Shown here in pieces: positions 7,680-58,299 of a stretch of 64,000 nucleotides of DNA (position 1 is its first letter; each line of letters begins with the position of its first letter). Below the pieces are notes generated by a model. The model was not told the DNA's origin. It ran no database searches and saw only the letters and a list, made by a program, of their open reading frames with translations. Location: the NCBI GenBank assembly GCA_964019335.1, contig OZ025724.1, forward strand, positions 62,001 to 126,000, given 5' to 3'. Origin of the DNA: Diplonema japonicum. Taxonomy: Eukaryota; Protista; Euglenozoa: Diplonemea. A program made the translations under genes and the position numbers.

Positions 7680-10600
7680 TTAGGAGATATGCAGCGTGGT
7701 CAGCGGGGCAATATCAACGCTCTGCGGGGTTTTCCTCACTTCTTCTGTGAGTCGAAGGAGAACCGGGTCGTCAGTATTCTCTAGAATAGCACTCACATCG
7801 CCTTTGGCGAAAGCAGCAGCGTAGTCTGATGACCAGGCCCACGCGCGCACCGTGCCGTCACCGCTCCACAGGTCGTTCCCCTCGATGTTTGGACGTAATT
7901 CGTAAACGGAAAATGTAAGAGGAGAGAGCGCTGCGGAAATGGAAGCAGTCCCGTCGGGGACGGAGAAGCCAGCTTTACTCGACCACCACCCGATGGGGCG
8001 CATGTTGGTGTCGTTGACGCGAAGCATCTTACCAGAAAGCGACACGTAAAGACAGAATATTTTCAACTTCGCAGCCGCGACAAGCAAATCAGCTGAGCAC
8101 CTCACACCAGATCCCATTGGCGTGATGTACCGTTGGTCAAACGTCCCGATGGCACCATAAAGCAGCGGGCAGCGGACCAAACTAAGGTGCAGCTCGTGTG
8201 GGATCGGGCATGGCACAGCCTGCGTTCTGGACAAATGCAAAAATCGTACAAACCGGGTGGAACACTCCCATTGGTCTGAACACGTCCGTCCAAGGTTCCA
8301 GCCAACGTAAAGCGACGAGCCGAACACGCCCAGCGTGGTACCCTCGCACCGTTCCAACTGCGTCACAGCGCGTGTCAACGCGATGTTCGCCGTCGACAGT
8401 ACATCGTAAGGAGAGTAGCTCATCACAAGATCACCTTCGAACATCGTCTCCATCTTGCAAATCGTTGCAGACTCGACCCTGTCCATCTTCCCCACCGGCC
8501 TTCGGGACAACACCGACGACGTGGAAGCTTCCATAGACGATGACCTATCATGCTCCAGTGGGTTGATGTTGCTGTGTGGGATCATGGCTTTCCGGTTCGC
8601 AAGTTCAACCGGAAGGAGGGCTGTGAGCTCCGTTTTCGCGGATATCCCCTTCAGCCCGACCTTACCCATCGGGACCAGCAAGACGTCGGATAAAAGCAGT
8701 GTCCCGTCCTCGTTGTGGATCTCAGCGAGAACGCTTTTCGTCACCGCCACGCAGCCGCCGTAGCACGCGCTCTCTACGCGTGCAGCTTTGTTCACAGTGT
8801 TCCCGAAATAGTCGTAACGCTGCGAGACGGGGTTGAACTCGACTTCGACTTCACCGCAGTGAATTCCGATTCTTATGCGCAGCCCGCCCCAATGAGGCGC
8901 AGAGCGAGCGCAGTCAGGTACTTCGTATACGGCAGATGGCCAGTCTGTGTGGAGAAGTCTGAGTTGTACGGTTGTGCCGAAGAAGCAAGCATCAACCGCG
9001 CGGTCGAAGCTTGCCATGTAAGAGTCGCCGATGATCTTGACCTCGTACCCGTCTGTGTCCGCAAGGCATTTGCGTATTACATTGTTGTGGATTCTGAGGG
9101 CTTCCTTCATTCCTTCCCCGCACTTCTCCCACAGCTTTGTGGACCCCTGTATGTCTGTAAACACTAACGTGGCAAAGTTCGACCGGAGCCCTGGTGCGCA
9201 GTCGCGCTCCGAACATTCCGGGACCAAGCCTAAGTCTCTGAACAGTGCGTCTGGTAGATATGGTCGGTAGGCTTCTAGGTTGTTCAGCATTTTGTCTAGC
9301 GATTTGTACATCATGTCAAGTTCCGTTATTATCGTTTTCTGACGCGGGATGGCGGTCAGCTTCATGATGGCGGCCTGGTTCATCTGCCCAGCGATCGTGC
9401 CGAAAGGGGCGACCAGCATCTCGTTGAATATGTAAAACGCCGAGAACGACGCGGCCAGGATGGCCACCACGATGAGAGCCGCCATTGTGCCCCGCTGCAT
9501 GAGTTCCACGTCGTTCTTCTCGCCTGCCTTGACCAAGCTGTCCATCACCTTGCGGTTGTTCTCACGGACCTCTCGCTTCACATCTTCCTCAGGAATGAGA
9601 ATGCCCACTATCACCGACACAGGCGGTGTCCCTTCCGACGTGATTTGTGTGTAGTCGTAGATCCATCTTTTCGGATCGACCTGCCTGCTTAGGACACCTG
9701 TAGAGAACACCGAGTGGACCTCGGATTCGCGCAGTGACAAATTATACATTTGAAAATCGTCCAACGACCCGGAGTAGTACATCCCTAGCTGGTACGCTTC
9801 TTGAAAGGTCTCTCGCGATTCGTGAAGGGAGATGTTTGCCCTGTCGTACAAGGACCCGTTCACATACATGGAACACTGACTGGTGAAGATCCTGTCGACG
9901 GTGATTGTAAAGTGGGTCCATTGACCTGCAGGCGGACCGTTCAGCAGGGGCTTCGTTTCGCATCCAAACACGTACAGCCCGAGAGAAAAGCCACCGTTTG
10001 CGTACCATCGCACGGCACCGTTCCCCGCAGCAGTGTCGCTGAAGATCCGCGGTTTCATGGGGTATATAGCACTTGTGGAGTTGATGGCCGCGTCGGGTTT
10101 CACCCACACGGAAATTGAAAACTGTGACGTTCCTAAGATGGCTTCGCGTGCGACAGGCTCAAGGCTCCCGGAGACTGAACTTGGGTATGCAACCGTCTCG
10201 GTTCCGTCAGAGTAGTGCAACGTGTGGTTGTAACCGGGAAACGAGCTTCTCCACGGCTCACCGTTCCGCGATACCTTCGTTGCAGCGACACGGGGAATGT
10301 CCGTCGTCAGGTTGTTGTAGATGAACAGAACAGAATCCTTGTCCAGATGCAGCGTGCCCGTGTCACCGATAACCCCTCCGCCGCCACGGATCTCCGTTTT
10401 GTATTCGTTGCCGGATACATCATTGTGCCCCCCGTTTGAGAACGGCAGTGAGATTTGAAGCCACGTAAAATCCTTGTAATAATTACTCTGTTCGAAGTTC
10501 CCCGAGCCGTCCTTGCTGAAGATGCGGCCTTCCTCGTGCGGACGTGTGAAGAGGTACTGCTGCAGCGCGTTCAGTTCGACACTGTACGTGTTGTTCATCG

Positions 10601-13043: not shown

Positions 13044-13492
13044 CCAGGTCTTCCTGGGGGGAGGGGGAGGTACCTTTGTTATGTTTTTTTTTCTTTTTGA
13101 AGACGATGAAAATCCCCCCCCAAAAAAAACAGGTATTGCATGTGGCGAGATGGCAATCGATAGAACAAGGAGTCATGGGAACGTCAACCAATGCTTCAAA
13201 CGATGCTTCATAGTCGAAAGCGTGGACAACAAGCGTGGTCTACGGGCAGTAGAAGTTTGACCTAATTGTACCATGATGATGTAAATATAAAGAAATACCA
13301 GAAAATGAGTTGTAAAGAAGTCTTTGTGAGTGGAGAAGCCCCCCCCGTTCTCGTCCACTACCCAAGAAAAAAAAAAAAGAAAGAAAGAAGAAAAAGTAAA
13401 GAAATAGGCAAAAAAATAAAATAAAAAGAATCCCCACCCCCCGGAAGAAAAAAAAAAACTAAAAGTGACGTGTGTAAACACTACTTTTACCA

Positions 13493-19358: not shown

Positions 19359-21140
19359 TTACTGCAGTAAATCGAGCTGGTGTTTACTATCCAACACAAG
19401 GCGAACGGTGAAGCACTTTTCAGCTACGTTGTACTCAGCAGTTCTGATGTGGCTTTTTTTTAATTTGCGTGTGGCATACTTTACATCGTCTTCCTTGCCT
19501 TCTTTGTGGTATTCTATGGACAGTTCTCCTTCGGCAGTCAGGTTCCACTTCTTTATAACGTTCTCCTCATTGCACGCTGTGTCCAGCAGCACAAGACCCT
19601 TTCTTCCTCTCGATATCGTCAAGGTCGTATTAGGTATCCCGACACTAGTCCCTGTCGTAGGCACGCTCGGCTCTTCCACGTCCAGTGGCTCCGCCGCGCT
19701 GGGCGGGCTTGCGGGTGGCGTCCCTTTTCGTTGTGGTTCAGGCTCAGGCTCAGGTTCAGGCTCAGGTGTGGACGGTTCGGGTTTCACCACTGGGTCCACA
19801 CGAAGAAGTGGTTCTGGTACTGCTGGATAAACACGATTGGGAGTAACAGGGCCCTGTTGAGACACGACGAGCCCACCACAGGAACCAAGACACCTCTCGT
19901 TGCAGTAAGGGGCATGACCCTTTGTGGAGATGTTGTTGCACCGCTTCCACAAACTGTTAATGCTGTGCACCTCGGATGTCATCTTCTCAAGGTTGTCTGT
20001 GGTCACAGCGTTCGGGAGGAGGATCCCTTTGGGTGGATGGCCGAGGTGCGACATGTCCATATGGACCGCGACGTAGTTCTTCTTCTTCCACGTCTTTTCA
20101 ACACTTGCAACAGAAGGGGCGAGGAGTGTGGTGCACGTTTCGCATTTGTAATTCGTACCGTTTTGGAAGTGAAAGCACTCGGAACACGCGTACATCGAGA
20201 CACGTGTCCTCTTAATGGTACACGTCATGTCATCCTTCTTGTGCGCCCCAATGACGAGCCCTGCGAGCAGTATCGCCGTGCACTCCGACCCGATGTTGTC
20301 CTTTGTACAGCTGATTGTGAGGTACGGTTCCTTCACCACAGAAACAAACAGGGCTTCGCACGACCCGCACATCCCGCATTCAGGCATGGACGAGCTCTTG
20401 CAATGCGGACAGGTCTCCACCACCTTCTTGAAGTACGTTGTGGTCTTCTCGTTGTCAGTGAGGTTCTGTCCGTAGCTCGACACGTTGCCCGCGAAATTCT
20501 TCGTCCTGTCCATGAAGGTGCTCGTGCTGGGTGCGGTGTAGTGGAGGCGAGGAAGCCCAGTCAGAACCCTGGCAAGGTCTTCTGCAGCGAGAGTGCTCCG
20601 ACTGTAGCGCTTGTCATGTGCATACCACAGCACGCTGTCGGGTGTTCGGTCACCAGACTTGGGGAACACCATGACAAAGCCAGTTGCAGGGGTGTCGGGG
20701 AGGACAACAGGAGGGTCCTTGACCTTCTCCACGGTGACCACCACCTTTGCAGGGGTATACAGCTCGTTGAAAAAGTTTGCTGCTGTGCAAGCCTGTCTGT
20801 AGGACTCACTGCCAGCCAACTGGCTCGAGATGCAGACCACAAGCTCCTTTGCATCGTTCTTCTCATGCTCGTGCTTCTTGCACACCGCGACGGGGATGAG
20901 ACCACTTGCGTCTGTTCTCCGGTACTCCAGGTCTGTCCTGGACCGATGTTCCCCACACTGCCGGCAGCAATCTTCCCCATGCTTCATGCTCTCTTGTATC
21001 TTTTTGATCATGCATACGGGCAGAAGCTCTTTATCCGCTTGACAGCTACACGCAACACTCTTCACACACGACAGGCAGGCTTGCTCCAACCTTCTCTCGG
21101 GTTCCTCTAACGTGCTTTCCATTGTTGCTGAAGACGACAT
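19359..21140 (-). CDS. Uncharacterised Cys-rich protein (multiple CxxC), PE-repeat linker; paralog 1
   Basis: Long ORF, likely start MSSSAT at 21140; CRQC, CPHC, CGMC, CSEC and CETC motifs; about 1.2 kb is identical to 27077-28290. Confidence 0.7.
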   Translation of the reverse strand: MSSSATMESTLEEPERRLEQACLSCVKSVACSCQADKELLPVCMIKKIQESMKHGEDCCRQCGEHRSRTDLEYRRTDASGLIPVAVCKKHEHEKNDAKELVVCISSQLAGSESYRQACTAANFFNELYTPAKVVVTVEKVKDPPVVLPDTPATGFVMVFPKSGDRTPDSVLWYAHDKRYSRSTLAAEDLARVLTGLPRLHYTAPSTSTFMDRTKNFAGNVSSYGQNLTDNEKTTTYFKKVVETCPHCKSSSMPECGMCGSCEALFVSVVKEPYLTISCTKDNIGSECTAILLAGLVIGAHKKDDMTCTIKRTRVSMYACSECFHFQNGTNYKCETCTTLLAPSVASVEKTWKKKNYVAVHMDMSHLGHPPKGILLPNAVTTDNLEKMTSEVHSINSLWKRCNNISTKGHAPYCNERCLGSCGGLVVSQQGPVTPNRVYPAVPEPLLRVDPVVKPEPSTPEPEPEPEPEPQRKGTPPASPPSAAEPLDVEEPSVPTTGTSVGIPNTTLTISRGRKGLVLLDTACNEENVIKKWNLTAEGELSIEYHKEGKEDDVKYATRKLKKSHIRTAEYNVAEKCFTVRLVLDSKHQLDLLQ

Positions 21141-27051: not shown

Positions 27052-28449
27052 TCAGTTCTTGAGATTCGCGGGCTTAGGTTCAGGCTCAGGTGTGGACGGT
27101 TCGGGTTTCACCACTGGGTCCACACGAAGAAGTGGTTCTGGTACTGCTGGATAAACACGATTGGGAGTAACAGGGCCCTGTTGAGACACGACGAGCCCAC
27201 CACAGGAACCAAGACACCTCTCGTTGCAGTAAGGGGCATGACCCTTTGTGGAGATGTTGTTGCACCGCTTCCACAAACTGTTAATGCTGTGCACCTCGGA
27301 TGTCATCTTCTCAAGGTTGTCTGTGGTCACAGCGTTCGGGAGGAGGATCCCTTTGGGTGGATGGCCGAGGTGCGACATGTCCATATGGACCGCGACGTAG
27401 TTCTTCTTCTTCCACGTCTTTTCAACACTTGCAACAGAAGGGGCGAGGAGTGTGGTGCACGTTTCGCATTTGTAATTCGTACCGTTTTGGAAGTGAAAGC
27501 ACTCGGAACACGCGTACATCGAGACACGTGTCCTCTTAATGGTACACGTCATGTCATCCTTCTTGTGCGCCCCAATGACGAGCCCTGCGAGCAGTATCGC
27601 CGTGCACTCCGACCCGATGTTGTCCTTTGTACAGCTGATTGTGAGGTACGGTTCCTTCACCACAGAAACAAACAGGGCTTCGCACGACCCGCACATCCCG
27701 CATTCAGGCATGGACGAGCTCTTGCAATGCGGACAGGTCTCCACCACCTTCTTGAAGTACGTTGTGGTCTTCTCGTTGTCAGTGAGGTTCTGTCCGTAGC
27801 TCGACACGTTGCCCGCGAAATTCTTCGTCCTGTCCATGAAGGTGCTCGTGCTGGGTGCGGTGTAGTGGAGGCGAGGAAGCCCAGTCAGAACCCTGGCAAG
27901 GTCTTCTGCAGCGAGAGTGCTCCGACTGTAGCGCTTGTCATGTGCATACCACAGCACGCTGTCGGGTGTTCGGTCACCAGACTTGGGGAACACCATGACA
28001 AAGCCAGTTGCAGGGGTGTCGGGGAGGACAACAGGAGGGTCCTTGACCTTCTCCACGGTGACCACCACCTTTGCAGGGGTATACAGCTCGTTGAAAAAGT
28101 TTGCTGCTGTGCAAGCCTGTCTGTAGGACTCACTGCCAGCCAACTGGCTCGAGATGCAGACCACAAGCTCCTTTGCATCGTTCTTCTCATGCTCGTGCTT
28201 CTTGCACACCGCGACGGGGATGAGACCACTTGCGTCTGTTCTCCGGTACTCCAGGTCTGTCCTGGACCGATGTTCCCCACACTGCCGGCATATGTTTTGT
28301 CCTTTTCCATCTCCAATCGTCTTAATCATGGAAACAGGCAAAAGCTCTTCATCTGAAGGGAAGCAGGAGCAAGCCGCTGCCGTATCAGGTATGGCTTCCA
28401 AGCATGTTAAGCACGTGCGTAGCAAAGCCTCATGGCGAGAAGATGGCAT
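27052..28449 (-). CDS. Cys-rich protein paralog 2 (different N-terminus, truncated C-terminus)
   Basis: Identical to paralog 1 over about 1.2 kb (offset 7324). A 20-nt remnant of the lost 3' part lies at 27023-27042 and equals 19412-19431. Confidence 0.65.
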   Translation of the reverse strand: MPSSRHEALLRTCLTCLEAIPDTAAACSCFPSDEELLPVSMIKTIGDGKGQNICRQCGEHRSRTDLEYRRTDASGLIPVAVCKKHEHEKNDAKELVVCISSQLAGSESYRQACTAANFFNELYTPAKVVVTVEKVKDPPVVLPDTPATGFVMVFPKSGDRTPDSVLWYAHDKRYSRSTLAAEDLARVLTGLPRLHYTAPSTSTFMDRTKNFAGNVSSYGQNLTDNEKTTTYFKKVVETCPHCKSSSMPECGMCGSCEALFVSVVKEPYLTISCTKDNIGSECTAILLAGLVIGAHKKDDMTCTIKRTRVSMYACSECFHFQNGTNYKCETCTTLLAPSVASVEKTWKKKNYVAVHMDMSHLGHPPKGILLPNAVTTDNLEKMTSEVHSINSLWKRCNNISTKGHAPYCNERCLGSCGGLVVSQQGPVTPNRVYPAVPEPLLRVDPVVKPEPSTPEPEPKPANLKN

Positions 28450-28535: not shown

Positions 28536-29066
28536 TTAAAACCCGGTCCTGCTGTGCACAAGGATGATGTGGTACCCGAATTGTGTGTATACAGGTTTGG
28601 TAGGCACGCCGATGTCGGCGTTAATACAAGCAGTCTCGAAAATGGGGTCCATCCTGTGGGTTTCGTACAGTCTCTCTCTTGCTTTCTTCCATACATGTTG
28701 AGACCAAAGCTCCCCAAACTGCCCCCGCTTTGCTTCCCACTGGGACAGACACTGTGGGCAGTTGCTAGCTGTTTGAACTTCTGTTTTGTTTATAAGAATT
28801 TGGGGGTAATCTTTTTTTTTTTTTTACGCACCGTTTCAACGTTCTCTTTGTCCTCTGTTGTCAGTGTTTGATATAAGTCAGCTGCCACGTTCTCCTCCTT
28901 CACCAAGATGTGGCTTGCATTTATAGAAGGGCCCTGCTTTTTGTATTATTGTTTATTAGGTTGCTTTTTGTCCCCCCCGTGCCTATGCTACCTGTCCCTT
29001 CATGAACATCATCATCATCAGTATCACCGCTACCGCCACTAGAACATGAACTGGGTCGATGTCCAT
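28536..29066 (-). CDS. Parvulin (PpiC-type) peptidyl-prolyl isomerase with N-terminal hydrophobic anchor; join(29066..28992,28933..28832,28780..28695,28653..28536), 126 aa
   Basis: Not assembled in the ORF track. Splicing three GT-AG introns (58, 51, 41 nt) gives ...ASHILVKEE...KFKQLATAHSVCPSGKQSGGSLGSFG..M...F...PVYTQFGYHIILV, the parvulin signature. Confidence 0.9.
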
Positions 29067-29816
29067 TTTTAGTTTAATTTTTCTAATTTTTTTCCGGCTG
29101 TTGTTTGTTAGAGCTGTTTTGGGGGGAAAGTCAAAAAAAGAAAAAGTCGCTTCATTTGCTTTCGATACTCGCAAAACAAACAAAAAAGTAACTTTTTGCA
29201 AAAAAATGAGTTGAAAAGGAGATCTTTGCGAGCGCACCTTTTGTTCTCATCCACTACCTGAAACAAAAACAAAAAAAAACAAAAAAAAGAATGCAGCCCA
29301 ATAAACCCGTAGCACCTGATGACGGTTTTACAGGGATTTCTTATGAGAGTGATATGAATCGGTGTCAAAAAAAAAATGCTCTTGGACCATAGTCTCAAAA
29401 GAATGTTCCAGCGATTCCGAGAGGCAAGGTAATAAAAAAGAAAAGGGGTTGCAGTATGTAAAAAGAGTTGCATAATAGTTCTTTGTGCACAGCCGGGGGT
29501 TTAACCTGTAGAGGGATAAGCCCAACATGCTACCACTACTCTTTTCTTTTTTTTTTTTTATAGCAAAAATACAATTCATTATCAAAATATATATTGTTTT
29601 TCCTTATTCAAAGCAAAATTTAAAAAAAAAAAAAATATATATATATGAGTTAAAGGAGGCCGGTGTTGGCGGCGCCTCCCCAAAAAAAAAAGGGGGTTAG
29701 CAGGGAGAAAAAAAAAAAAAAAAGAGATGAGATAAAGGAGGTTCCTGTTTTGGAACGTCCCCCTTGTCTCTACTTATCTACCCCTTTCTCCCTTCTGGGG
29801 CCTCGGCCTTTCTTAA

Positions 29817-29930
29817 AAAAAAACTAGTTTGGCGCTCCATTTGTTTGTGCGCACGAGCGGAATTTTACCTAATAAAATAGCTCATTACGCTGCCATCAAC
29901 TAGTTTTTAGTCTCGACAATAATGTTGTTA
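29817..29930. repeat. ~115-bp direct repeat, copy 1 (copy 2 at 35223-35336), flanking the NACHT gene
   Basis: aaaactagtttggcgctccatttgtttgtgcgcacg...gctgccatcaactagtttttagtctcgacaataat..tgttaa, near-identical in both copies. Confidence 0.9.
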
Positions 29931-29988
29931 AAACAAAAAAGAGAGAGAAAGAAAAAAAATGTGTTGTCCCCCCACCGGATATGCAACA

Positions 29989-32900
29989 TCAAGAAGTGCA
30001 AAACCGCACGCACGAAGTGCTGCAGCCACCACTGCTCACCTTCTCAGAGACCGCCAACGTCCGGTGGATCTGCTTACTCTCCTGCGACGATTGCACGGCC
30101 CCGTAAGATTTTGCAAGCTGCCAAAAGTGTTTATTACAAGTCCGCGTGTCCACCTTTGCAGCACTGACACTAAAGCTCGGTTGGCACACCCTTCGCAACA
30201 GCTTGAACTCTGTATTCGAGGGGCTGTATGCAGCGAGAAGCGGAGTTAAACTACTCAACTGCCCACGGCCGTACACCTCAATAGCCCAGTTTGTTCCTGA
30301 ACAAACAAAAGCGGCAGCAAGAGTAGGATGCCATGACAAAGACTTCACAGTCCCTACATCAGGATGAACTTCACACTGTTCACCACTACATATGTTCATC
30401 ACAGTGATGTGCGTGCTATAGTATACCCCCAGGACTGTCGGGTCCGTTTTGTTCCAAGCAGCGCCCTCGATGTTGCTGTTGACTGTTCTTGTGAGTAACG
30501 GTGTGCTGCAGCCTGCTTCGACGTCCCACACCTTGATTTCCTTCTCCGAGACCGTTACAAGCTTCGTTCCGTCGCAGTTCCACTCCGTCCGCTGCGCTCC
30601 CTCGTGCGGAAACTTGCTCACAACTGTTCCAGTAGCTCCCCGTAGTGTGCCTGCACCGCGTTCTAATAACACGCTCATCAGATCTTTGTCCACAACGGGG
30701 TTCTTCCTGAAGTGTTCTCCTGTTTTCAACACTTCTTTCACCTCACCGCTTGTCACGTTGTACGTTGATAGCATCTCCGTGTTTTGTGTAAAGTACACCT
30801 TGTCGCCTGTAGGGCACCACTCGAAGTATTTGACGTCCTGTTCTTCAAGTGACCACCGTCTGACCCCTGTGCATGTGTTGTAGCATGTCAGCGATTTTGT
30901 ATCCGACCCTATCATAGCTTGCCCGTCGAGTGGGTGGTACTGCAGCCGTGTTACCTGTTCCGTGCTGCTCTTTGACAAGAGGTCGCCCGAGGGGACGTGC
31001 CATGTTCGTATCGTACCATCCGAGCTCCCTGTCCCTATCACGCCTTCCATAGAGGGGTGCCAGTCTACGCTTGTCACTGTGCCTGTGTGCGAAGGCTTCT
31101 CTTTGCTTTTCAAGCTCTCTCTTTCGTCCCTGTTGCCGCCGTAGGTGAATCGCAAGTTGCCACCAGAACACCCTGATGCCAGAATGGGTCTTGTACGGTG
31201 GCATTCCACTGTATTCACACTCTCAATGTGCCCTTCGCACCTATGGACGACTGTCTCAGTCACAGAGTTTATGATGCGGACTAAAGCATCTGAGGCACCT
31301 GCGGCAAGCATCGTGGAGGGTGTCTCGGGACACCTGTTGGGTGTGTTTTTGAAATTCTTTTTTTTTATTTGTGCATACCGTGCCCAGGACATCTTTTTGA
31401 AGTAGTGCCCGAAAGGGAGGGTGGTCGCTATCGACTTCAAGAAGGACTTGGTGCCGTAGCTGTAGAGGTCGATGCGACCGGACTTGGCAGCCACAGCCAT
31501 CTGGCTACGCTCTGCGTTGAAGGCGATGTCTGTTACCTGTGCGTGGTGGTCGTGGGTTGCTGAATCGTGCATACCTCGGCATCGAGCTCCTCACGCCACA
31601 CCACTTGCATCTTGCCAACATCAACGATGGAGAAGGACCTATCAGCGCACCAGACTGCGGCTGTCTCACCGTCCTTAAGGGACGACCTCACCCCAAGTAC
31701 GTTACTGTCGAGCTCCAAATTTTTTCTCTTCCGTTTCGCCGCGCAGGAGGTGCTGAGCTCAGGAAAGGCGAACAGAGTCATCCCGGCTGATGCGAGGAGA
31801 GCGGGGTGCTTTGTTGCGGTGTAGGCAATGCCCGTCACCCGCTTCGAGAGGCAGCCAATAGATGTGGTCCCGCCTTTGCTGAAGTTCCATAAGAAGAGCC
31901 CGCCATCGTCGGAGCCCACTGTAAGCTGCGCTTTTTCATTCGGGTGCCACGCGATGCACGACGCGCTACCAAGTTCGCCCATCACGCGCACAGCATCCAC
32001 GTCATAGATGACTATCCGGTTCTCGCTTAGCACGGCAATGATCTGAGGCATCAAGCCGTTCCACGCGGAGTCCAGCACCTTGCCATGTTCTTGCAACATG
32101 GGAAACAGACCTGTCCTCAGCGGCAGCCTGGCAGTCGAAGAATTGCACACCCAGTCGTCCAAGTGTGCTTCTGTGAAATCGCACCCATCGAGGTTTGCTT
32201 GTCTTATATCAACACCGCGAAGGTCTGCACCCCTGAAAGACGCGCCTTTAAATTGCCCTCTGAACAGCCTTGCGCTGGGTATTTTCACACCCGAGAAGTC
32301 CGCGCCGCCCAAGTCGATCCCAGTCGCCACCAGCAGGGACATGCTGTTCACCGCAGTGTTGCATTTCCCTGCGCCGCTCCAGTCCCGTGACAGATCGATG
32401 TTGTCCCATAATTTCTGGATGACGGTTTTGCCCTCTGTGATGTCCTTGCGGAGTCTGGAGCGCACCGCTTCTCCGAAAAAGTCGAGCACCAAAGAATTCC
32501 CGCATGCCAGAGACCAGTGGTCCAAGAGGCTCACACAGCCGAGATCGTCGTCCTCTGCGAGACATTTGTACAATGTGCGAGCAAGGAGGAACTCGTGGAT
32601 AGACCTGTGCACGAACGAGAACATCCCCTGAGGATCTTCGGGATCCTCCAAACGCAACGGCGCGCATGTGAGCAACAGCATCGCGGTATCAATGGACAGG
32701 TTCATAGACTTTGCCACGGCGGCGGTGTGGGGGGCGACCTCACCATGCCAGGAGTCCTTATGGAAGAGGGACAAGGCAAGCTTCTCGCAGAATGTAAACA
32801 GGTACTCTATTTTGTCATCTTGACTCTCGGGCAGTGCGTGTTTGTGCACCTCCAGATTTAGGCGTTTGAGTTTCCTCTCGATTTGTAAGCTGCACCATGT

Positions 32901-35090
32901 CGAATAAACCTGCCAGCGCCCGTCTCCGGGCTGCAAGCTAGCTGCTGAATCGACAGCCATCGACAGTTGGAAGGCATTGTGTACATCACTTGTGAGGCCA
33001 TAGACAATGTTGCTCACAGTGTCCGAAAGCGCTCCAGACACGCTGAAGAAGACAGGCGACACCTTCGTAGCCGACGGGCCTTTGTCTTGCATGTAATTCC
33101 AAATCCTCTCAAGATTGCTCTTGGGAATCAGGTTGAACGTCTTATCCTTCGCAACCCCCTCAAGCCCTCTACTATGCAGATGTTGCACTACTGAAGTCAC
33201 CTGTTCCTTCGCAGCTTTTAGCATATATTCTCTGATATGCCTTCGCCCCAGTTGTTGTACATAATAAAGCTGTGTGTCCGGGCCGAGTATGTGCGCCGCA
33301 TGGAGGTCCCAATATCTAAGATATTCGGTTCGGGTAGATAGCACCACGCGAGCATTCGGCCATTCGTCGAGTTTGAACCCCAGTCTTCCAAGCAAGCATT
33401 CGGAACCAGGAACTTTTAGGTAAGACGCCTCCCCTTTGCATTCGTCAAGGGAGTCGAGGAGGAGGGTCACGTTCCGTGTCTTTAGCTCCTCGATTTCGTT
33501 GTCGTTGAGATTGTATTCGCTCTTCATGGCCTCGATGATATTGGGGGGGTTGTCAGGGCTGAGCACGTTGGGAAGGGACGGTAGGGAGTAGAACATCTTG
33601 ATATGTTGTTTGGAAGGGAGGGCCATCAGGGAGAGGGTGGTGGATGTTTTACCAGAGCCCGCTTCCCCAGCGATAACGGCGGTGCGGACGGTCGCACCAT
33701 CGCCCAGCGCCTCGTAGACGTCGATGAGCTCCTGTTCCGGAACGTTCTCTTGGTTGAGCGACACTTGAGGCTCGACATACCGTGCTTGGAAATCTTGAAA
33801 GAAAACTTTTACGCTCTCGCGCACGCCATCGAATCGTGCGTCTATAACTTTTGACGGCGACATGCTTGGCCGCTTCTTCTCCGACATCTGGTTCAGGATT
33901 ACTACGTCGTTGGCCGACCGAAGCGTTGTGAGTAAAGCGTCACCCGGCCTGAACACAACCTGGAAGACCTGGTTGGAGGGTAGGATAAGCTCCCGTTCTG
34001 AGGGGTACATGGATGTCCAGCTGATGTCCACAGCAGGGTCCTCGTCTGCATTGATGATGAACCATGTTCCACCGGACTCGCCTGTGAACCACCATGCGAT
34101 GGCAGGCTCGCCGGACGTGGATGTGAACGCGGGCCACGTCACCATCGCGCCCTCTCGGTACCGTTTGGAAACACGGTGCCCGGAAAGCCCCCGGAAGACT
34201 GTTCTCGGGGTCCTAGGAAGCGCCCTGACAAAGGTGTCCAAGCGTTTAATCAATGGCTTCATCACTTCCAGTGCCCTTTTGAAGACCATCAGGTCCGCGT
34301 CACCGTTCGCAGAACGCATGTGGGGATCGCCAACCTCACGCATGCAGAGGTTCAGTGCGTTGTATATTTGCATAGGCCGTTCTTGGGCACGGGGAATATC
34401 GGGGGTATTTGGATCGTTGGGCACTTGAGAGTTGTAAGTGTAAAAGAAGCACGACATGAATCCTTCCAGCGCATCCTTCGCGCCCATGTGTTCAAGGGCT
34501 TCCCAAGGTACAGATTCGTTAGTCTCACTGTCTGTCAGAACGCTTTTCAACACCGAGGCAAGGTTGTGAAGCATGCAGCATGTCGGGCTTCCGTTGGCGC
34601 ACCTGCTGTAGTGGAGGCCGTGGGGGCACCACAGCTCGCTTGGGTAGAAGCTGCACCCCCCGCGTTCCAGGAATTGTTCTTCAGAGTGCTTCCAGGTTTG
34701 CCGCATGGCAGTCTTGGGGACGTTCTGTTCCCATTGCACAGGAAGCCCCACGATCCATTTCAGAAGGGGTTCGATTTCACCTTCACTGTCGTAGAACTGG
34801 TACATGTCGCTTAGGATAGCACTCAGAGCGGTGTAGCATTGAGATGCGCCGATGTCCAAGCAGGTGCTTAGTCTATCCAACATCTCCCCTGTCAGGTCGT
34901 GTTCTCGTCCCGATTCTCGTCTTTTCTCACGAAACAAGTTGTACTCCTCTTCCTTAGCATTTTCCTTCTCTCCATCCCATCCATCGTTGCTCCCTTCATG
35001 TTCCTTCAGCCAGGTATGCAGCTGTGCAAACCCCTCCACCACACCGCCTTCAGGGTCTGGTTCGAATTGATAATCTTGTACCCTTGTCAT
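29989..35090 (-). CDS. NLR-like STAND protein: ADP-ribosyltransferase - NACHT - pentapeptide repeats - WD40; join(35090..31575,31536..31379,31333..29989), 1672 aa
   Basis: ART R-S-E motifs VFRG, FTSTS and SERE; Walker A GEAGSGKT; Walker B LLLDSLDE; VVLSTR; FSFVHRSIHEFL; A(D/S/N)(F/L)xx repeats; WD40 repeats. Removing the 38-nt intron fuses the two ORFs (LDAE|VTDIAF); removing the 45-nt intron deletes a Lys-rich insert. Confidence 0.9.
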
Positions 35091-35222
35091 TTCTTTTTTG
35101 TTTTTTTTTTGTTTTTTTTTCTCCTCCACTCCCCCCTTTTTTTTTCTTCTTTTTCTTTTTGTTCGTTTTGTATCGTCGTTCGGGCAAAGAAACTACAATG
35201 AATGGCACAGAAAAACAAAAAA

Positions 35223-35336
35223 AAAAAACTAGTTTGGCGCTCCATTTGTTTGTGCGCACGAACGGAATTTTACCTAATAAAATAGCTCATTACGCTGCCA
35301 TCAACTAGTTTTTAGTCTCGACAATAATATTGTTAA
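35223..35336. repeat. ~115-bp direct repeat, copy 2; its terminal TTAA is the piggyBac target site
   Basis: Matches 29817-29930. Confidence 0.9.
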
Positions 35337-37083
35337 CCCCTAAAGGCCCGGAGCCTATCTACGGTATCCCCCCATTTTCGTTGTTGCTTTAAATACTCAA
35401 AAAAAGGGCAGCATGCAACCATAGGAAGGTGCAAGGAAAGGGTAAACGGTACTCCAGATTCAGATGAGAACACTTAACTATGTGTGTAAGAGGGGGGTTG
35501 AGGGGGTACCTTTTATGTCCGATTTTGGGGGGTCTTGTCGTGGGGGGTCCGTGGAGTTATGGCTGGGCTAAAAAGGGCAGCATTCAGCCCTATTTGGTGC
35601 CCTGAACTCTAGGATTGAGGTCAGTCTGGAGACTTTTGGGGGCTGTGGGATGAAAAAAGCAACTTGTGAGTTTTTCCAGCTGAGGTAGCATGCAAGGGTA
35701 AAAAACACGTTTTGCATAAGGGGGTTTTGCAACAGGGGCACCACATTTGCACCTTCTTCCCGCACCCAGGAACAGCACAGAGCACCCTCCTCACCTTCGT
35801 TCCGTTCATCATGGTCTCGGAGGTGTGATTTAAGGTCAAATCGAGACGTTTTGGGTATTTCTGAGTGAGGGAATCCTCATTGCTAGCGTGTTTGCGCTTG
35901 GGGGTCGGTGACGGTGTTGTCGGGGTGTGTGCTATCGGTTTTTGGGGCATGGGTGAGAAGCTTGCCAACAAGTTCTTCTTTGAAGCTCGGGAAGCCATAA
36001 TTTTTGCCACATTCCCTGCTCTTCTTCCAGATTATGGAGGAGTTGGCAACACAGCTTTCGACCATGGTCCACTTCCGGGTTTTCATATGCCGAACTCCAG
36101 TCCCCTGGAGCTGGTCTTGCCGGTCAGGGGTCGACAGCAAACCCTTAGGAGTCGACAGTACGCATGACTAGGTCCTGTGTTGTGGACTTCTTGCTGAAAA
36201 TGTTGAAATTCGCCAGGTAACCGTTTTATGAGTCACATGTAGCGATTACCTTGATGCCCACCGAGTTGCTTTTTCGTGGTGCCATGACTTTTGTTGTTGT
36301 CGGGATAACACTGTCGTCAACAGACAACCACTTGCCAGGGGTCCGCACAGTCCTACACCGGTTGACAATGATGTCAAGAAACCTGCACATGAGGTGCAGT
36401 TTCAGGCCTTCCAAATGTTTTCCAGGTTGTCAAAGGTGAGGTAGCGCTGTATGTCAACGAATCGGTTTGCTCATTTTCTTAAAAGCCGGATGGTTAAATT
36501 AGAATTTGTTGTCCAGTAGCTCTTCATGTTCGGTGCCGAGCGTAACCCCATTAACAGGACCAACCCAAGCCAAATTTTGTACTCTAGGATGGAAAGATTC
36601 AGATTCCGCTGTTTTTTTGAATCGAAACGACCGTTCGTGGAAGAAACTATGAGCTCAAGTACCGCGTGTGCAAAAAAAAAAGATTAAAAACACCCTCCTC
36701 ATTGGCCGCTTCACCTAGAGGTGTCCTGAGCCCACCTTTTCACGGAAATGATATGTTTTGGGCCTTTGGGAGTATTTCTCCCACCCAAGCATCGTTTCCG
36801 GCCCCTCTTTGACCGCCTCATCGTCTTTTTCTTCTTTATCTGACCAGTCGGGGGAGACTCACGTTTTCGCTGCTATTTTGACCATCTGATTTCATTTTAA
36901 GCCGACCCTGCCGGTTTCAATTGAAACAAAACCTTTAACGCAAAATGTAGTTCCAAGACAAAATAAACCGCGCAACAATGCCATATTTTGAAGTCCAGGG
37001 GCCGTGTTCAAAAAAAAGTACTTAGCGAAAAAGCAAATTTTGAAATAAGGACAAAAATGTCCGCGCGGGCCTTTAGGGGTTAA
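35333..37083 (-). mobile_element. Degenerate piggyBac transposon (second family)
   Basis: TTAA at 35333-36 and 37080-83; perfect 14-bp TIR cccctaaaggcccg / cgggcctttagggg; transposase fragments PGKWLSVDDSVIP and GIKVIATCDS; Cys-rich tail CAVPGC...WCPCCKTPLCKTCF..H. Confidence 0.92.
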
Positions 37084-39203: not shown

Positions 39204-41327
39204 TCAGGAGACGACGCAGCAGCCTGCCACATTTCTTTTCGTGGTGTTCTTTGTCGCAGGTTCCCAGCACCTTGCAGGGTTTTGTTCAGGTAGCTTGGCG
39301 GTCACCACCACCACCTGTGCTTCGCAATGTTCCTGTACCACGGCGTCGTCTCTGTTCCCGGGATCCTCCTCGTTGAGCAGCTGCATCCCTTCAGCGTTAT
39401 TCCGAGCGGCTATTGGGGTCCCTGAAAGAAACCACTTTCCAACAGCTGTGACTTTGCGAAGAGGGCTGAGGTCAACGCTCTCCAAAGAAATGCAACTGTT
39501 GAAAAAACTGTCCCCAACAAACTGCACGTTCTGCAAGGGGCTCATATCCACAGAAGTCAATGATTCACAATTGTCGAGGAAGCTATCGCCGACTGAGGTG
39601 GCGTTGCGAAGAAGGCTGAGATCAACGGCTTCCAAAAGCTTGCAGTTGAAGAGAAAGTAATCGCCGACAGACTCCACACTCTGAGACTCTTGCTTGTTCA
39701 AAGTAACCCACCGTAGCGAGTCGCAGCCACTCATGAAGGAGAAGTTCACTCTCGTCACATTCTTAAGTGAGCTCAGATCAACAGAAGTCAATGTTTCACA
39801 CCTGGATAAAAAACTGTGCCCAAGGGCACTGACATTACAAAGGGGACCGAGGTCAACTGTTTTCAAAGACTTGCAGCTGCTGAGAAATGAACTCCCGATG
39901 GACTGAACCATTTGCAAGGGACTCAAATCCACAAAAGTCAATGATTCACAGCGACTGAGAAAGCCATGGCCGAGTGCGGTCACATTGCGAAGCGGGGTGA
40001 GGTCTACAGTTGTTAGGGAGGTGCATTTATTGAGAAAATTGTCGCCGACATGCACGCTAAGCGAAGCAACGAGGTCCTCTTTCTGAAGGCCCTGTTCATC
40101 AACACAAGAAGTCATTGATTTGCAGTGGTTTTCGCCGCCGATCGTTGTGTTGTTCTGAAGGAAACAGAGATTCACGGACGTGAGAGAGTTGCACTCGTAG
40201 AGAAAATAGTCCCCAACCGACCGAACACCATGGAGGGCTGTCAAGTCCAAGGTGACAACTGATGAGCAAGATCCTAAAAAATAGCTGTCAATAGTCATGA
40301 CATTGAACAGCTGGCTCAAATCCACAAACTTCAACGACACACAAGCATTCATGAAACTGCAACCCACAGCGGATATACGCTCAAGGGGGCTCAGATCCAC
40401 AGATGTCAATGATCCGCATTTTGAGAGAAAGCTGTCGCCGACGGTGGTGACGTTGCGAAGGGGGCTCAGATCAACGGTTTTCAGAGACTTGCAGCTGTGG
40501 AGAAAATAATTCCCGACCGACTGGACGTTCTGCAAGGGGCTGAGATCCACGGAGGCCAATGACTCACAGCCGTCGAGGAAATAATCTCCCGTTGTTTTGA
40601 GGTTTTCGAGGAACCCGAGGTCGATGCTCGAAAGAGATTTGCAGTTGTGGAGAAGACAGCTCCCAACCGACTGAGCGTTTTCAAAAGACGTCACGTTAAC
40701 AGAAGTCAATGATGCACAGCCAGTGAGGAACTTGCTACCGATTGCCGTGAGGTTCCTGAAGACGCAGAATAGGGATGTTAGCGAGCTGCTTTCACTGAGA
40801 AAGCAGTCCCCAATGGACTGAACGCCCCGCATGGCCGCCAGCTCCAAGGTGACGAGTGAGGAGCCAGATAAAAAAGAATCCCCTATAGATGTTGCACCGT
40901 CGCTCAGGGTCCACACCTTGAGGTGACGAAGATTTGAGGGAAATTCGTTTGTGAGGCTACTATCGAGGCAGGTCAGTCCTGCAACATCCACCTCAAGAAG
41001 AAGCTCAGGGTTCTCCTCAAGAAACCCTTTGATCTCCTCTTTTCGCCTCGGGAGCTCCTCGTGACTGACACTAAGTGCTCTGTTACAGGTGCACAAGAGA
41101 AGCTCGCTCCCCTGCCCCATCCCCAGCTGCTGTATCTCCTGTTCCCCACCGCCAGATGTCTCATTATCCAAGACCACACCTTCGAATTGTAAGAGGAACC
41201 ACCCTACCTCCATTGCAGAAACCTCAGCCGCCTTCCTGTACAGGTCCTTCACCCTGTCAAGCCCAGACAGCTCCACCTCGTGCACCACATCCTCGTCGAC
41301 AGTCCTGATCAACACTGCGAGGCTCAT
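39204..41327 (-). CDS. Ubiquitin-like - BspA-type LRR - CaaX protein (paralog 1, 707 aa)
   Basis: N-terminal ~80-aa beta-grasp-like domain, about 20 repeats of ~23 aa (CxSLTSVDLSPLxNVxxxGxxFL), C-terminal GCCVVS. Confidence 0.85.
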   Translation of the reverse strand: MSLAVLIRTVDEDVVHEVELSGLDRVKDLYRKAAEVSAMEVGWFLLQFEGVVLDNETSGGGEQEIQQLGMGQGSELLLCTCNRALSVSHEELPRRKEEIKGFLEENPELLLEVDVAGLTCLDSSLTNEFPSNLRHLKVWTLSDGATSIGDSFLSGSSLVTLELAAMRGVQSIGDCFLSESSSLTSLFCVFRNLTAIGSKFLTGCASLTSVNVTSFENAQSVGSCLLHNCKSLSSIDLGFLENLKTTGDYFLDGCESLASVDLSPLQNVQSVGNYFLHSCKSLKTVDLSPLRNVTTVGDSFLSKCGSLTSVDLSPLERISAVGCSFMNACVSLKFVDLSQLFNVMTIDSYFLGSCSSVVTLDLTALHGVRSVGDYFLYECNSLTSVNLCFLQNNTTIGGENHCKSMTSCVDEQGLQKEDLVASLSVHVGDNFLNKCTSLTTVDLTPLRNVTALGHGFLSRCESLTFVDLSPLQMVQSIGSSFLSSCKSLKTVDLGPLCNVSALGHSFLSRCETLTSVDLSSLKNVTRVNFSFMSGCDSLRWVTLNKQESQSVESVGDYFLFNCKLLEAVDLSLLRNATSVGDSFLDNCESLTSVDMSPLQNVQFVGDSFFNSCISLESVDLSPLRKVTAVGKWFLSGTPIAARNNAEGMQLLNEEDPGNRDDAVVQEHCEAQVVVVTAKLPEQNPARCWEPATKNTTKRNVAGCCVVS

Positions 41328-41426
41328 GTTTATATGGTTCTTTGTCCTTTTTCGAATATTGCAGAGAGTGACATTCTTTTTTGGTTCCCCCCTCCCCCCC
41401 CGGCCGCTGTTATGTGCAAAATAAAA

Positions 41427-41623
41427 ATATATGAGTTAAAGGAGGCCGGTGTTGGCGGCGCCCTGCACAAGAACTGTCTACTTATTTACAGGGGGCGCAC
41501 CGCGACCGAGTTGTAGCTTCTGCTGCGTTCCGCGCCGTGTCCTTACTTGCGTGCAGTGTACAGCTCAACAGCAAACAACACACTCTGATGTTCTTCTTAT
41601 ATTTTCATGTTATCCCCACCACC
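41427..41623 (-). mobile_element. ~200-bp SINE-like element ending in the type-I tail; related copies at ~5149-5295, ~22550-22595 and ~42575-42845
   Basis: Shared blocks tgtagcttctgctgcgttccgcgccgtgtcctta and tcaacagc(g/a)aacaacac..ctgatgt.cttct.tatattt.cat. Confidence 0.65.
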
Positions 41624-43911: not shown

Positions 43912-45291
43912 TCAGCAAACGATGCAACACTCTTTACTTTTACAGGTTGCTTGCTTCACAGGAGGACCCCAGGACCTTGTTGGTATTCTTGGTCGCTCTT
44001 CCTGTTGTGCTGGTTGCTCCTCCTGTTCCTGTTGATGTCCCCGTAGTCTGAGGAATTCCACAACATCTTTCCTGTGTTCCACTGGGGTCCCTGAAAGAAA
44101 ACAGCTGCCGACGGTGGTGACATTGCGTAGGGGGTTGAGATCCACAGAAGTCAATGATTTACAGCCATGGAGAAAATTATCACCGATATTTGTGATGTTC
44201 TGCAAAGGACCCAGATCAACAGTTTTCAAAGAGCTGCAGTTGTAGAGAAAATCTTTGCCAACTAACTGAACGTTCCGCAAGGGGCTCAGATCAACAGAAG
44301 TCAATGATTCACAGCCATTGAGAAAACTGTATTCGAACCGTGTGATGTTCTGGATCAACAGTCGTTAGAGCTTTGCAGTTGAAGAGAAAATAGTCCACAC
44401 TGGATGCAGAAGTACAGGTGTTGCGCAGGGGGCTCAGATCGATAAATCTTAACGAAACACAATAAAACATGAGACCCCAGTGGTCCATACTGGTCACATT
44501 CTGCAAGGGACTCAAATCCACAGAAGTCAATGATTCACAGCCACTGAGAAAATCACTTCCGACGGTGGTGACATTGCCAAAGGGGCTCAGATCAACTGTC
44601 TTCAAAGAGCTGCAATCTCGGAGAAACTCGCGCCCAATGGACTCAACATTCTGCAAAGGACTCAAATCCACAGAAGTCAACGATGTGCAGTTATAGAGAA
44701 AAGAAGAGCCGACGGTGGTGACATTGCCAAAGGGGCTCAGATCAACATTCGTAAGAGACTTGCAATTCTTGAGAAAACAGTCCCCAACGGACTGAAGACC
44801 CTGCAAGGTCGACAGGTCCAAGGTGACGAGTGAGGAGCCAGACAAAAAGGAGTCCCCAATAGAGGTTGCACCGTCGCTCAGGGTCCACACCTTGAGGTGA
44901 CGAAGCTTTGAGGGAAGCTTGCTTGTGAGTCCATCATCAAGACAGTCCAGACCAGTGACATCCACTGAAAGAAGAAGCTCAGGATTCTCCCCAAGATGTC
45001 TTTCAACATCCTCTTTCAGATGCGAGAGGTCCACATGACTGTTTTATAAATACTACACAAGAGAAGCTCGCTCCCCTGCCCCATCCCCAGCTGCTGTATC
45101 TCCTGTTCCCCACCGCCAGATGTCTCATTATCCAAGACCACACCTTCGAATTGTAAGTGGAATCTCCCCACCTCCACTGCAGAAGCCTCAGCCGCCTTCC
45201 TGTACAGGTCCTTCACCCTGTCAAGCCCAGACAGCTCCACCTCGTGCACCACATCCTCGTCGACAGTCCTGATCAACACTGCGAGGCTCAT
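43912..45291 (-). pseudogene. Ubl-LRR-CaaX paralog 2, disrupted
   Basis: Collinear with paralog 3 but with ~10-nt (near 45040) and ~11-nt (near 44352) deletions that cause frameshifts; ends in ECCIVC. Confidence 0.85.
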
Positions 45292-48444: not shown

Positions 48445-50109
48445 CTAAGCCTGTTGGGATCTGAACCACTTCCATGACGAGCCGACACAGAGTGGACGGT
48501 AAGTCTTCTGCTTTTCTGATTTTCTTAGACTATACGGTTTGCTGACTACAGAACTATCATTGGTTTCCTTCCGAAGAAGCGCGACAACATCAGCCCTGCC
48601 TGCTCGTGATGCCGACACGAGTGGTGTCATTCCTGATGGTGTCGTGATGTTGACATCAGCCCCATGATCCAGCAAGGTCCTGCATACTGCCATGTGTCCT
48701 AATGATGCCGCAACGTGAAGGGGTGACACCGAGCGCCCCATCCGCTTCAACAGAACATCAGGACACACGCCAAGAGACAAAAGAATCTCAAGTTCATCAG
48801 GAAAGTTGCTGAAGGAGGCCCGAAACATGACAGCCAGCTTGTCCTCCTCGCTCAGTCCCTCCATCGCCTTTCGTGTTGCCTCGTTGCCCCTGATGTACCC
48901 ACCACTCCCGTACCGAAGCATTCCTGACACTTTGCTGTGCCGTTGATAATATGAAACAGTTGCCGTAAGCCCCTTCACAGCCCCTTTCGTCAGAAGAAGT
49001 GACACAACATCAGCCCTGCCTGTTCGTGATGCCGACATGAGTGGTGTCCATCCTGATGGTATTCTGATGTTGACATCAGCCCCATGATCCAGCAAGGTCT
49101 TACAAACCGCTACGTGTCCTGCTGATGCCGCAATGTGAAGGGTTGACACATGACTATTTCCCGACTTGAATAGCTTGTTGGGATCTGAACCACTTTTGAT
49201 GAGGAGTCCACACAAAGTGGAATCCCCCACTCGTGCTGCCGACGGTAAGTCTTCTGCTTTTCTGATTTTCTTACACCCTGGTTTGTTGACCACATTGGTT
49301 CCCTTGGCACCCTTTTGAAGAAGAAGCGCGACAACATCAGCCCTGCCTGCTCGTGATGCCGACATGAGTGGTGTCATTCCTGATGGTGTCTTGATGTTGA
49401 CATCAGCCCCATGATCCAGCAAGGTCCTGCATGCCGCCATGTGTCCTGATGATGCCGCAACGTGAAGGGGTGACACCGAGTGCCCCATCCGCTTCCACAG
49501 AACATCAGGACACACACCAAGAGACAAAAGAATCTCAAGTTCATCAGGAAAGTTGCTGGAGGAGGCCCGAAACGTGACAGCCAGCTTATCCTCCTCGCTC
49601 AGTCCCTCCATCGCTTTCAGTGTTGCCTCGTTGCCCCTGATGTACCCACCACTCCCGTACCGAAGCATTCCTGACACCTCGCTGTGCCGTTGATAACATG
49701 AAACAGTTGCCCCAAGCCCCTTCACAGCCCCTTTCGTCAGAAGAAGTGACACAACATCAGCCCTGCCTGCTTCCGATGCCGACATGAGTGGTGTCCTTCC
49801 TCCTCCTGCTGATGGTGTTCTGATGTTGACATCAGCCCCATGATCAAGTAAGGTTTTGCAAGTTGCTAGTCTTCCGCCTGAAGCCGCAAGATGAAGGGGT
49901 GAGATGGTTCCACTTCCCCACTTAACCAACGAATTAGGATCAGCACCCTGCAGGATGAGATCCCCTATGCCATGGTTGGCCGATACCGCACGGTGAAGAA
50001 CACGCGAGTCAGGTCCACACAGGAGACTTCTGTTTCCCTCCACTTGTTCGACCATCGCCCTGCCCCACATCCCCTTCGCTGTCCCACGCAACCACCTTCC
50101 GAGCCGCAT
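48445..50109 (-). CDS. Ankyrin-repeat protein built from a duplicated 747-bp unit; degenerate 3' end
   Basis: SPLHxAA...G....C..LLDHGADVN and TPLMSAS..G..DVV.LLL repeats; unit offset 48721 vs 49468. The last ~30 codons are an out-of-frame copy of the linker. Confidence 0.85.
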   Translation of the reverse strand: MRLGRWLRGTAKGMWGRAMVEQVEGNRSLLCGPDSRVLHRAVSANHGIGDLILQGADPNSLVKWGSGTISPLHLAASGGRLATCKTLLDHGADVNIRTPSAGGGRTPLMSASEAGRADVVSLLLTKGAVKGLGATVSCYQRHSEVSGMLRYGSGGYIRGNEATLKAMEGLSEEDKLAVTFRASSSNFPDELEILLSLGVCPDVLWKRMGHSVSPLHVAASSGHMAACRTLLDHGADVNIKTPSGMTPLMSASRAGRADVVALLLQKGAKGTNVVNKPGCKKIRKAEDLPSAARVGDSTLCGLLIKSGSDPNKLFKSGNSHVSTLHIAASAGHVAVCKTLLDHGADVNIRIPSGWTPLMSASRTGRADVVSLLLTKGAVKGLTATVSYYQRHSKVSGMLRYGSGGYIRGNEATRKAMEGLSEEDKLAVMFRASFSNFPDELEILLSLGVCPDVLLKRMGRSVSPLHVAASLGHMAVCRTLLDHGADVNITTPSGMTPLVSASRAGRADVVALLRKETNDSSVVSKPYSLRKSEKQKTYRPLCVGSSWKWFRSQQA

Positions 50110-50300
50110 GTGTGTAATACCTACTGAGTTGCGGTGTGATCAAAGACAATAGTGAATGCAGATTAAAGCGTACTACGCCGATGCGCATAAGCGTTTCATT
50201 TTGTTTCAAACTTTCTTGTGTATCGAGAGATGGTCAAAGATACACAGTAAGACCTGCCAAAGAAACACAACTTAGTTGTATGCATCACTGGTTATTGCCC

Positions 50301-58155: not shown

Positions 58156-58299
58156 GTTTATATGGTTCTTTGTCCTTTTTCGAATATTGCAGAGAGTGAC
58201 ATGAAACAAACGTGCGGCTTTCTTTTTCGGTTTCCCCCCCCCCCCCCCCCCGGCCGCTGTTATGTGCAAAAATAAAAATATGAGCTCGTCCGAAAAAAA

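Follow-up and report, generated by a model that had tools for sequence, protein, structure and literature searches.

The stretch of DNA analysed in this work, hereafter the window, comprises 64,000 nucleotides (nt) of the genome of the diplonemid Diplonema japonicum (Euglenozoa), corresponding to positions 62,001 to 126,000 of contig OZ025724.1 (GenBank assembly GCA_964019335.1). A gene on its reverse strand (35090..29989 in window coordinates), whose coding region contains two introns, encodes a protein of 1672 amino acids (aa) in which an ADP-ribosyltransferase (ART) domain is followed by a NACHT module, pentapeptide repeats and a WD40 region. The gene is real and expressed, and its product is a variant of the receptors known as nucleotide-binding oligomerization domain-like receptors (NLR) or signal transduction ATPases with numerous domains (STAND), with an intact effector of the ARTC type.

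The coding region is spread over two stop-to-stop open reading frames (ORFs), 31533-35192 and 29989-31590, which overlap out of frame near 31530-31590. The coding part of exon 1 (31575..35090, aa 1-1172) includes the ART domain, the NACHT module, the pentapeptide repeats and the first WD40 blades; exon 2 (31379..31536) has 158 nt; and exon 3 (29989..31333) encodes WD40 blades and a Cys-rich C-terminal tail and includes the stop codon. Both introns have GT..AG borders. Intron 1 (31537..31574, 38 nt) changes the frame, while intron 2 (31334..31378, 45 nt) is in frame and stop-free. Their removal leaves 5019 nt, which encode the 1672 aa and a single terminal stop.

Contigs from two of the four sequencing runs compared (X6 and X7; studies P3 and P2; 157 letters on the short side) join across both introns, and those from X1 and X4 retain them; the kind of each run, RNA or DNA, is inferred here from the presence of exon joints. 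The Trinity-derived protein P0002 matches residues 623-1672 with 100% identity, spanning both junctions, and in the full-length Trinity ortholog P0001 (1683 aa) the domains follow one another as they do here. The ART and NACHT part is covered by the X6 and X7 contigs piecewise, not as a single continuous transcript. A first-pass annotation, made from the letters of the window, had merged the two ORF fragments into one gene by removing these introns, and the joints in the contigs and the identity of P0002 bear it out. The G+C content at third codon positions (0.64) is at the upper end in relation to seven neighbouring ORFs (0.49-0.63). No alternative letters were listed over the gene at 95% likeness in the four runs.

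The ART domain (aa 92-405; 33876..34817, reverse strand) is a mono-ADP-ribosyltransferase of the R-S-E type, with R300, S324, E365 and E367, identified by Pfam, predicted fold and alignment. The Pfam ART family covers residues 294-380 with 30.4 bits, above its cut-off of 22.3. The motifs are VFRG (298-301), FTSTS (322-326) and SERE (364-367), in which E365-R-E367 forms the ExE, and R300, S324 and E367 are invariant in the 52 rows of the alignment. The ExE motif is the signature of arginine-specific ART transfer. The model of aa 1-997 folded from these 52 rows had a predicted local distance difference test (pLDDT) of 86.3 and a predicted template modelling score of 0.83, with low values at 1-84, 161-169 and 980-997; a single-sequence fold of aa 1-430 (pLDDT 37.8) was discarded.

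Comparison of this model with 48,161 chains in VIA gave R-S-E ARTs in the top five rows, followed by NACHT NLRs. For aa 92-405 the best match was ART2.2 (Z 15.1, root-mean-square deviation (rmsd) 3.2, 201 residues aligned), and further matches were HopU1 (Z 14.8), the toxin/immunity ART 6drh (Z 14.8), XopAI (14.0), Vis and ExoS. Foldseek also found HopU1 (E 3.8e-7), a sequence profile found HopU1 and ExoT at E 0.0011, and the matches of the ART part in a language-model atlas, with a score of 0.83, serve as a lead only. The intact R-S-E signature with ExE that had been annotated is present, and the predicted N-terminal fold is that of an ART. In the model this fold spans aa 92-405, so that most of the N-terminus corresponds to the ART helical lobe, beyond the catalytic strand region. 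A cluster of Cys and His residues (C155, H160, C164, C171 and C172) is inserted in this lobe at aa 155-172 (34575-34628) and kept in about 14 of the 52 rows; a zinc site is possible. A simple hydropathy scan of the 1672-aa model revealed no hydrophobic 19-residue window above 1.6, for which reason the protein is probably cytosolic.

The NACHT module (aa 410-926; 32313..33863, reverse strand) consists of a nucleotide-binding domain (NBD), helical domain 1 (HD1), a winged-helix domain (WHD) and helical domain 2 (HD2), as assigned by Foldseek and VIA, and carries K481, D546/D549/E550, R587 and H828. Walker A is GEAGSGKT (475-482), with K481 in 51 of the 52 rows; Walker B is LLLDSLDE (543-550), the definition for NACHT being hhhhD[GAS]hDE; the sensor-1 arginine R587 is found in all 52 rows; and the winged helix has an FxH-type motif, FVHRS (826-830). 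NLRC4, NLRP7, NOD2 and NLRP3 were ranked first by Foldseek, with E values from about 1e-10 to 1e-8 for the best matches, and VIA matched aa 410-926 to NOD2 (Z 12.2, rmsd 6.0, 395 residues), NLRP3 (12.1) and NLRC4 (11.5). By these motifs and predicted-fold matches the module appears full, as had been annotated.

The pentapeptide repeats (aa 928-977; 32160..32309, reverse strand) are recognised by Pfam at 946-977 (36.1 bits, cut-off 20.2) and appear as regular short strands in the fold model. The nearest clusters to aa 430-1000 in the language-model atlas are bacterial NACHT-pentapeptide proteins (score 0.95, Cyanobacteriota), a result that is uninformative on the direction of transfer. The candidate sensor is a divergent WD40 beta-propeller region at about aa 986-1620 (30150..32135, reverse strand, ends approximate), with 54.3 bits for Pfam WD40 and matches to many propeller families; WD40 is above the Pfam cut-off in the last exon. 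This region is the least conserved part in relation to the D. ambulator ortholog, with an identity of 38% compared to 74% for the ART core and 57% for the NBD, other parts ranging from 51% to 74%. At the C-terminus (29989-30030), a tail of three cysteines is conserved with the same ortholog while its flanks are not, and may represent a lipid anchor or a metal site.

A first search revealed four related proteins: one from D. ambulator (58%), the identical P0002, one from D. papillatum (37%) and a 1983-aa protein with the prefix 'Hpha', read as Hemistasia. Searched against 1.84 billion cluster representatives, a profile of the ART-NACHT core had 305 hits at 1e-10, and the family counts below come from the best 150 of these 305. 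Among 151 proteins compared, 40 partial or single-domain rows were dropped, and at least 111 proteins cover both ART and NBD. The organism was looked up for 30 of the 111 clusters. An organism name was available for 22, all of them euglenozoan, and the other eight were from ENA (seven) and Logan (one); some of these eight are on contigs reaching 1.8 Mb and branch within groups of euglenozoan rows. The named members are from Namystynia (10), Lacrimia (3), Artemidia (2), Apiculatamorpha (2), Euglena gracilis (2), and D. ambulator, Flectonema and Papus (one each). Papus and Apiculatamorpha are prokinetoplastids and Namystynia is a hemistasiid diplonemid; since organism-assigned members fall in diplonemids, kinetoplastids and euglenids, the ART-NACHT fusion is found in all three. 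Ten of the 30 clusters looked up are from Namystynia alone, which represents a lineage-specific expansion. None of the named members among these 30 was from Bodo or trypanosomatids, a number too small to show absence.

The functional residues are the conserved part of this family. Without the three profile seeds (108 rows), the R-S-E triad is intact in 94 rows, R-S-ExE in 85 and Walker A K[T/S] in 98, and 90 rows have both triad and Walker A; in an alignment of 103 rows, the columns conserved at 90% or more are only the ART catalytic and NTPase residues. The distances for ART and NBD covary (rho 0.44, maximum 0.14 in 200 permutations), and the nearest ART neighbour is within the five nearest NBD neighbours for 82 of the 111 proteins. 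Because of this covariation, the sequences are consistent with a fusion inherited as one unit. In P0047, P0056 and P0068 the ART triad is decayed and the Walker A lysine lost, which fits helper, decoy or sensor-only partners, and the triad is also decayed in five of the seven ankyrin members (P0072, P0075, P0090, P0109 and P0126).

Pfam domains were searched in 110 of the 111 proteins (P0024 was omitted as too long). The C-terminal repeats are WD40 in 41, tetratricopeptide repeats (TPR) in seven, ankyrin in seven and leucine-rich repeats (LRR) in five; the C-terminal domain of P0054 is a BspA LRR. The sensor end is the visibly variable part of the family, effector swaps being outside the reach of a search profile that included ART. 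At least 50% internal identity between WD40 repeats, as in HET-E, occurs in 16 of the 41 WD40 members, one of them at 100%. P0069 (100% over 80 aa) and a clade of ENA sequences (P0028-P0052 group) include some near-identical WD40 repeats such as those of fungal HET-E. Additions at the N-terminus include RCC1 (four proteins), an ANF receptor domain, SAM, PDZ, ankyrin and an EEP domain. In P0004, P0005, P0006 and P0010, hydrophobic helices precede the ART, and this suggests surface-receptor versions. In the hemistasiid proteins P0004, P0007, P0010, P0011 and P0013, RCC1 propellers or an ANF-type ligand-binding domain precede the ART-NACHT core, some of them together with hydrophobic helices, and these proteins may be surface receptors whose output is ADP-ribosylation.

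The family was also sought outside Euglenozoa and among described systems. A profile word search added two members (P0162 and P0163), the rest being generic WD40 or NACHT proteins. No member appeared in DNA-pattern scans of JGI metagenomes or viral contigs, an insensitive search by which absence from prokaryotes and viruses is not proven, and tblastn, likewise insensitive, found no relatives in plasmids. A bacterial metagenome-assembled genome (L001) had a lone weak match to the N-terminus of another member (query residues 4-63) and, as far as tested, does not contain a family member. PADLOC matched none of its families for the four proteins submitted. The titles and abstract openings searched in the literature contain no description of an ART-NACHT fusion or of euglenozoan NLRs, in agreement with the earlier statement that no characterised example is known in Euglenozoa; earlier bioinformatic work may nevertheless mention it. 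These proteins apparently form an undescribed pan-euglenozoan family, which keeps the ART-NACHT core and exchanges the repeat domain behind it.

In D. japonicum itself, a second colinear copy of the gene is present in runs X1 and X6 at 80% likeness (X11 was also compared), with 81-85% identity in the aligning pieces of 29940-35090. The main contig of this paralog measures 3438 nt in X1 but 3363 nt in X6, which shows that it is spliced too. Third codon positions account for 28 of the 40 differences listed (of 392). A six-frame profile search found no second ART-NACHT piece within the window, and the paralog lies outside it.

The gene is flanked by two copies of a 117-nt repeat in the same orientation, upstream (35220..35336) and downstream (29815..29931), with 98% identity. 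Their summed depth in X1 is about 77,000 compared to 138 for the gene; depth is not equal to copy number, but so high a value suggests that the repeat is a common interspersed element. Read along the coding strand, the upstream copy closes with a run of T, after which an AG near 35195 could be used for trans-splicing, and the pair could enable gene duplication or loss by recombination. An Rfam search of 29000-36500 gave only two sub-threshold matches, none for these repeats. The neighbouring genes identified by Pfam are three BspA-type LRR genes, an ankyrin-repeat gene and remnants of a long interspersed element with endonuclease and reverse transcriptase (39204-41435, 44309-45043, 56590-58302, 48445-50139 and 59118-63329). 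Farther away, PA, laminin-G and nucleotide cyclase domains occur in an ORF of 1830 aa (7680-13172), and a stretch of at least 300 nt is present twice in identical form (19747-20046 and 27071-27370), 7.3 kb apart, inside ORFs with no Pfam match.

The order effector-NACHT-WD40 is shared with the fungal HNWD/NWD NLRs, such as HET-E and HET-D of Podospora, and so are the interchangeable sensors of the family (WD40, TPR and ankyrin) and the near-identical WD40 repeats of some euglenozoan relatives. On the other hand, the effector here is an ART rather than HET, HeLo, PNP or an amyloid motif, the pentapeptide repeats form a spacer, the WD40 repeats of this copy are not internally conserved and the host is unicellular; Pfam found no HET domain in the 1672-aa model. 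The main text of a survey of fungal NLR effectors has no occurrence of 'adp-ribos' (10.1101/2022.03.16.484565). The bacterial NACHT (bNACHT) proteins, including cyanobacterial NACHT-pentapeptide proteins, have a similar tripartite plan with an enzymatic effector, but the gene described here, unlike bNACHT and Avs genes, is eukaryotic and spliced and has no PADLOC match. The NAD+-targeting effectors given for bNACHT are TIR, SIR2, DrHyd and PNPase, with no occurrence of ADP-ribosyltransferase in the main text (Kibby et al., 10.1101/2022.07.19.500537), and 'adp-ribos' does not occur in the available text of 10.64898/2026.01.04.697583.

Among animal proteins, NLRC4, NOD2 and NLRP3 share the NBD-HD1-WHD-HD2 fold, with 11-17% identity to those structures. 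In the TEP1/NWD1-type TeTIR-NACHT-WD40 NADases, too, a domain that uses NAD+ is linked to NACHT and WD40 (10.64898/2026.09.21.753143). In contrast to animal NLRs and TEP1, this protein has no CARD, PYD or TIR-like domain, and its NAD+-using domain has the ART fold. The LRR-ART family LRRC9 is presented with no NACHT fusion in the text available (PMC7955679), and ARTs are named as apoptotic effectors in general terms in another (PMC8195603). The fold with helical lobe and the R-STS-ExE motif are common to ART2.2, HopU1, ExoS/T and Vis. These are ecto-enzymes or secreted or injected bacterial effectors, whereas the ART domain of D. japonicum, with no hydrophobic segment and fused before NACHT, would act inside its own cell.

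In the STAND cycle established for NLRC4, Apaf-1, HET-E, bacterial NACHT proteins and Avs, the module is kept closed by the repeats in its ADP-bound state; once a ligand binds, ATP exchange and oligomerisation can follow, after which the N-terminal effector is active. By analogy, ligand binding by WD40 would free the NACHT ATPase, which would switch on the predicted arginine-directed mono-ART. The ART would in this way be gated by the STAND cycle, its targets would be arginines on proteins of the cell or of an invader, and the trigger would be non-self, that is, viruses, bacterial endosymbionts or prey. We assign a rough probability of 0.57 to such an NLR-type switch that serves in defence or in a cell-fate response. 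That the ART is active and gated by NACHT seems highly probable; if so, a role in defence or death is likely, as favoured by the family expansion, the occurrence of each of the four kinds of NLR sensor repeat and the HET-E-like repeats of the relatives. The fold matches, the retained ART and NTPase residues, the exchange of sensors on the core tree, the low conservation of the WD40 region and the third-position differences of the paralog also speak for the switch.

Several observations weigh against this interpretation. On the core tree (FastTree, long branches flagged), the four sensor labels require eight changes, where the minimum possible is 3 and shuffled labels give 18.2, and the starred branches force only two changes each for WD40, TPR and LRR and one for ankyrin. 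Since the labels are so clustered, sensor swaps in this tree are occasional, not rampant, and sensors are mostly clade-specific. No C-terminal repeat was recognised in 51 of the 111 rows, 19 of which, being shorter than 1100 aa, are possibly incomplete. In the copy described here, the best self-match over 80 residues of the WD40 region in a diagonal scan is 20%, within the 18-22% of shuffled sequences; with no internal repeat conservation, the analogy to HET-E is weak for this protein. The first-pass interpretation is thus supported in part: its architecture, splicing, ART fold with ExE and NLR-like reading stand on contigs, motifs and folds. The faster change of WD40 than of the enzyme core is common elsewhere and is no proof of an arms race. 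In addition, the gene is low-copy here, with one paralog seen, and the orthologs of the same architecture in two other Diplonema species (support 0.99) fit a stable function. Finally, several hemistasiid relatives combine RCC1 or ANF domains and hydrophobic helices with no C-terminal repeats found, pointing to general signalling.

Conserved low-copy orthologs across Diplonema would indeed be expected if the ART-NACHT core were a general signalling output, comparable to a kinase or a cyclase, performing reversible ADP-ribosylation of cell proteins in response to cues from within the cell or from its surroundings, unconnected with infection or death. The relatives that resemble receptors, in which RCC1 or ANF ligand-binding domains are combined with hydrophobic helices (P0004 and P0010), the SAM or PDZ adaptors (P0032, P0022 and P0030), the transcripts in several studies with no challenge on record and a conserved Cys-rich tail that could anchor the protein to membranes agree with it. 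Characterised NACHT proteins with enzymatic N-terminal effectors, however, are mostly defensive (10.1101/2022.07.19.500537). Moreover, what the relatives show, namely lineage-specific expansion, the four kinds of NLR sensor repeat and repeats like those of HET-E, is typically seen in conflict systems, and general signalling is rather unlikely beside the defence switch, although it is the most credible of the alternatives.

The first position of the ExE motif bears on the reaction that the defence switch would perform. Gln at this position favours NAD+ hydrolysis in rodent ART2, and in the family it is Gln in seven of the 111 rows and Glu in 94. The NLR-like switch could be real and the ART mainly an NAD+ hydrolase, a self-modifier or an integrated decoy for invader proteins, as the Gln rows and the decayed triads of the ankyrin members would allow. 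NAD+ depletion is also a common STAND output through TIR, SIR2 and TeTIR (10.64898/2026.09.21.753143, 10.1101/2022.07.19.500537). This possibility is improbable for a protein with ExE in a family where Glu prevails, the arginine-transfer signature, and an invariant triad is not needed by a decoy.

The Pfam NACHT family (PF05729) covers residues 469-627 with 23.8 bits (E 4.5e-5), under its cut-off of 26.7, and the proline of the GxP type in HD1, found in 40 of the 52 family rows, is Ala706 here. These are the last two points against an NLR-type switch; several relatives pass the PF05729 cut-off, such as P0052 with 41.4 bits. Together with the conservation of orthologs across Diplonema, the low Pfam score would suit a housekeeping scaffold or a relic with inactive ART or ATPase. 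Such a protein is very improbable, given that its catalytic residues are all intact and near-invariant in the family, and that the gene, with a paralog in the organism and a large and variable family elsewhere, is not single-copy.

Beyond this locus, the switch proposed for D. japonicum may be one case of a wider system. We tentatively suggest, with somewhat less than even confidence, that a euglenozoan NLR immune system goes back to the ancestor shared by euglenids, diplonemids and kinetoplastids. Its fixed ART-NACHT core would be joined to sensors of the WD40, TPR, LRR or ankyrin kind and, among hemistasiids, to surface-receptor domains. Pathogen detection would then lead directly to arginine ADP-ribosylation, a class of NLR effector undescribed in animals, plants, fungi and bacteria. 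If true, toxin-type mono-ADP-ribosylation would join the known NLR outputs (NADases of the TIR/SIR2 kind, nucleases, proteases and pores), and a unicellular lineage would have assembled the complete set of NLR sensors independently once more. The detection of viruses and intracellular bacteria by single-celled eukaryotes is largely an open subject, and diplonemids are abundant marine protists. For them and for other Euglenozoa, the ART-NACHT family represents candidate receptors with a built-in enzymatic readout, easily assayed by NAD+ labelling.

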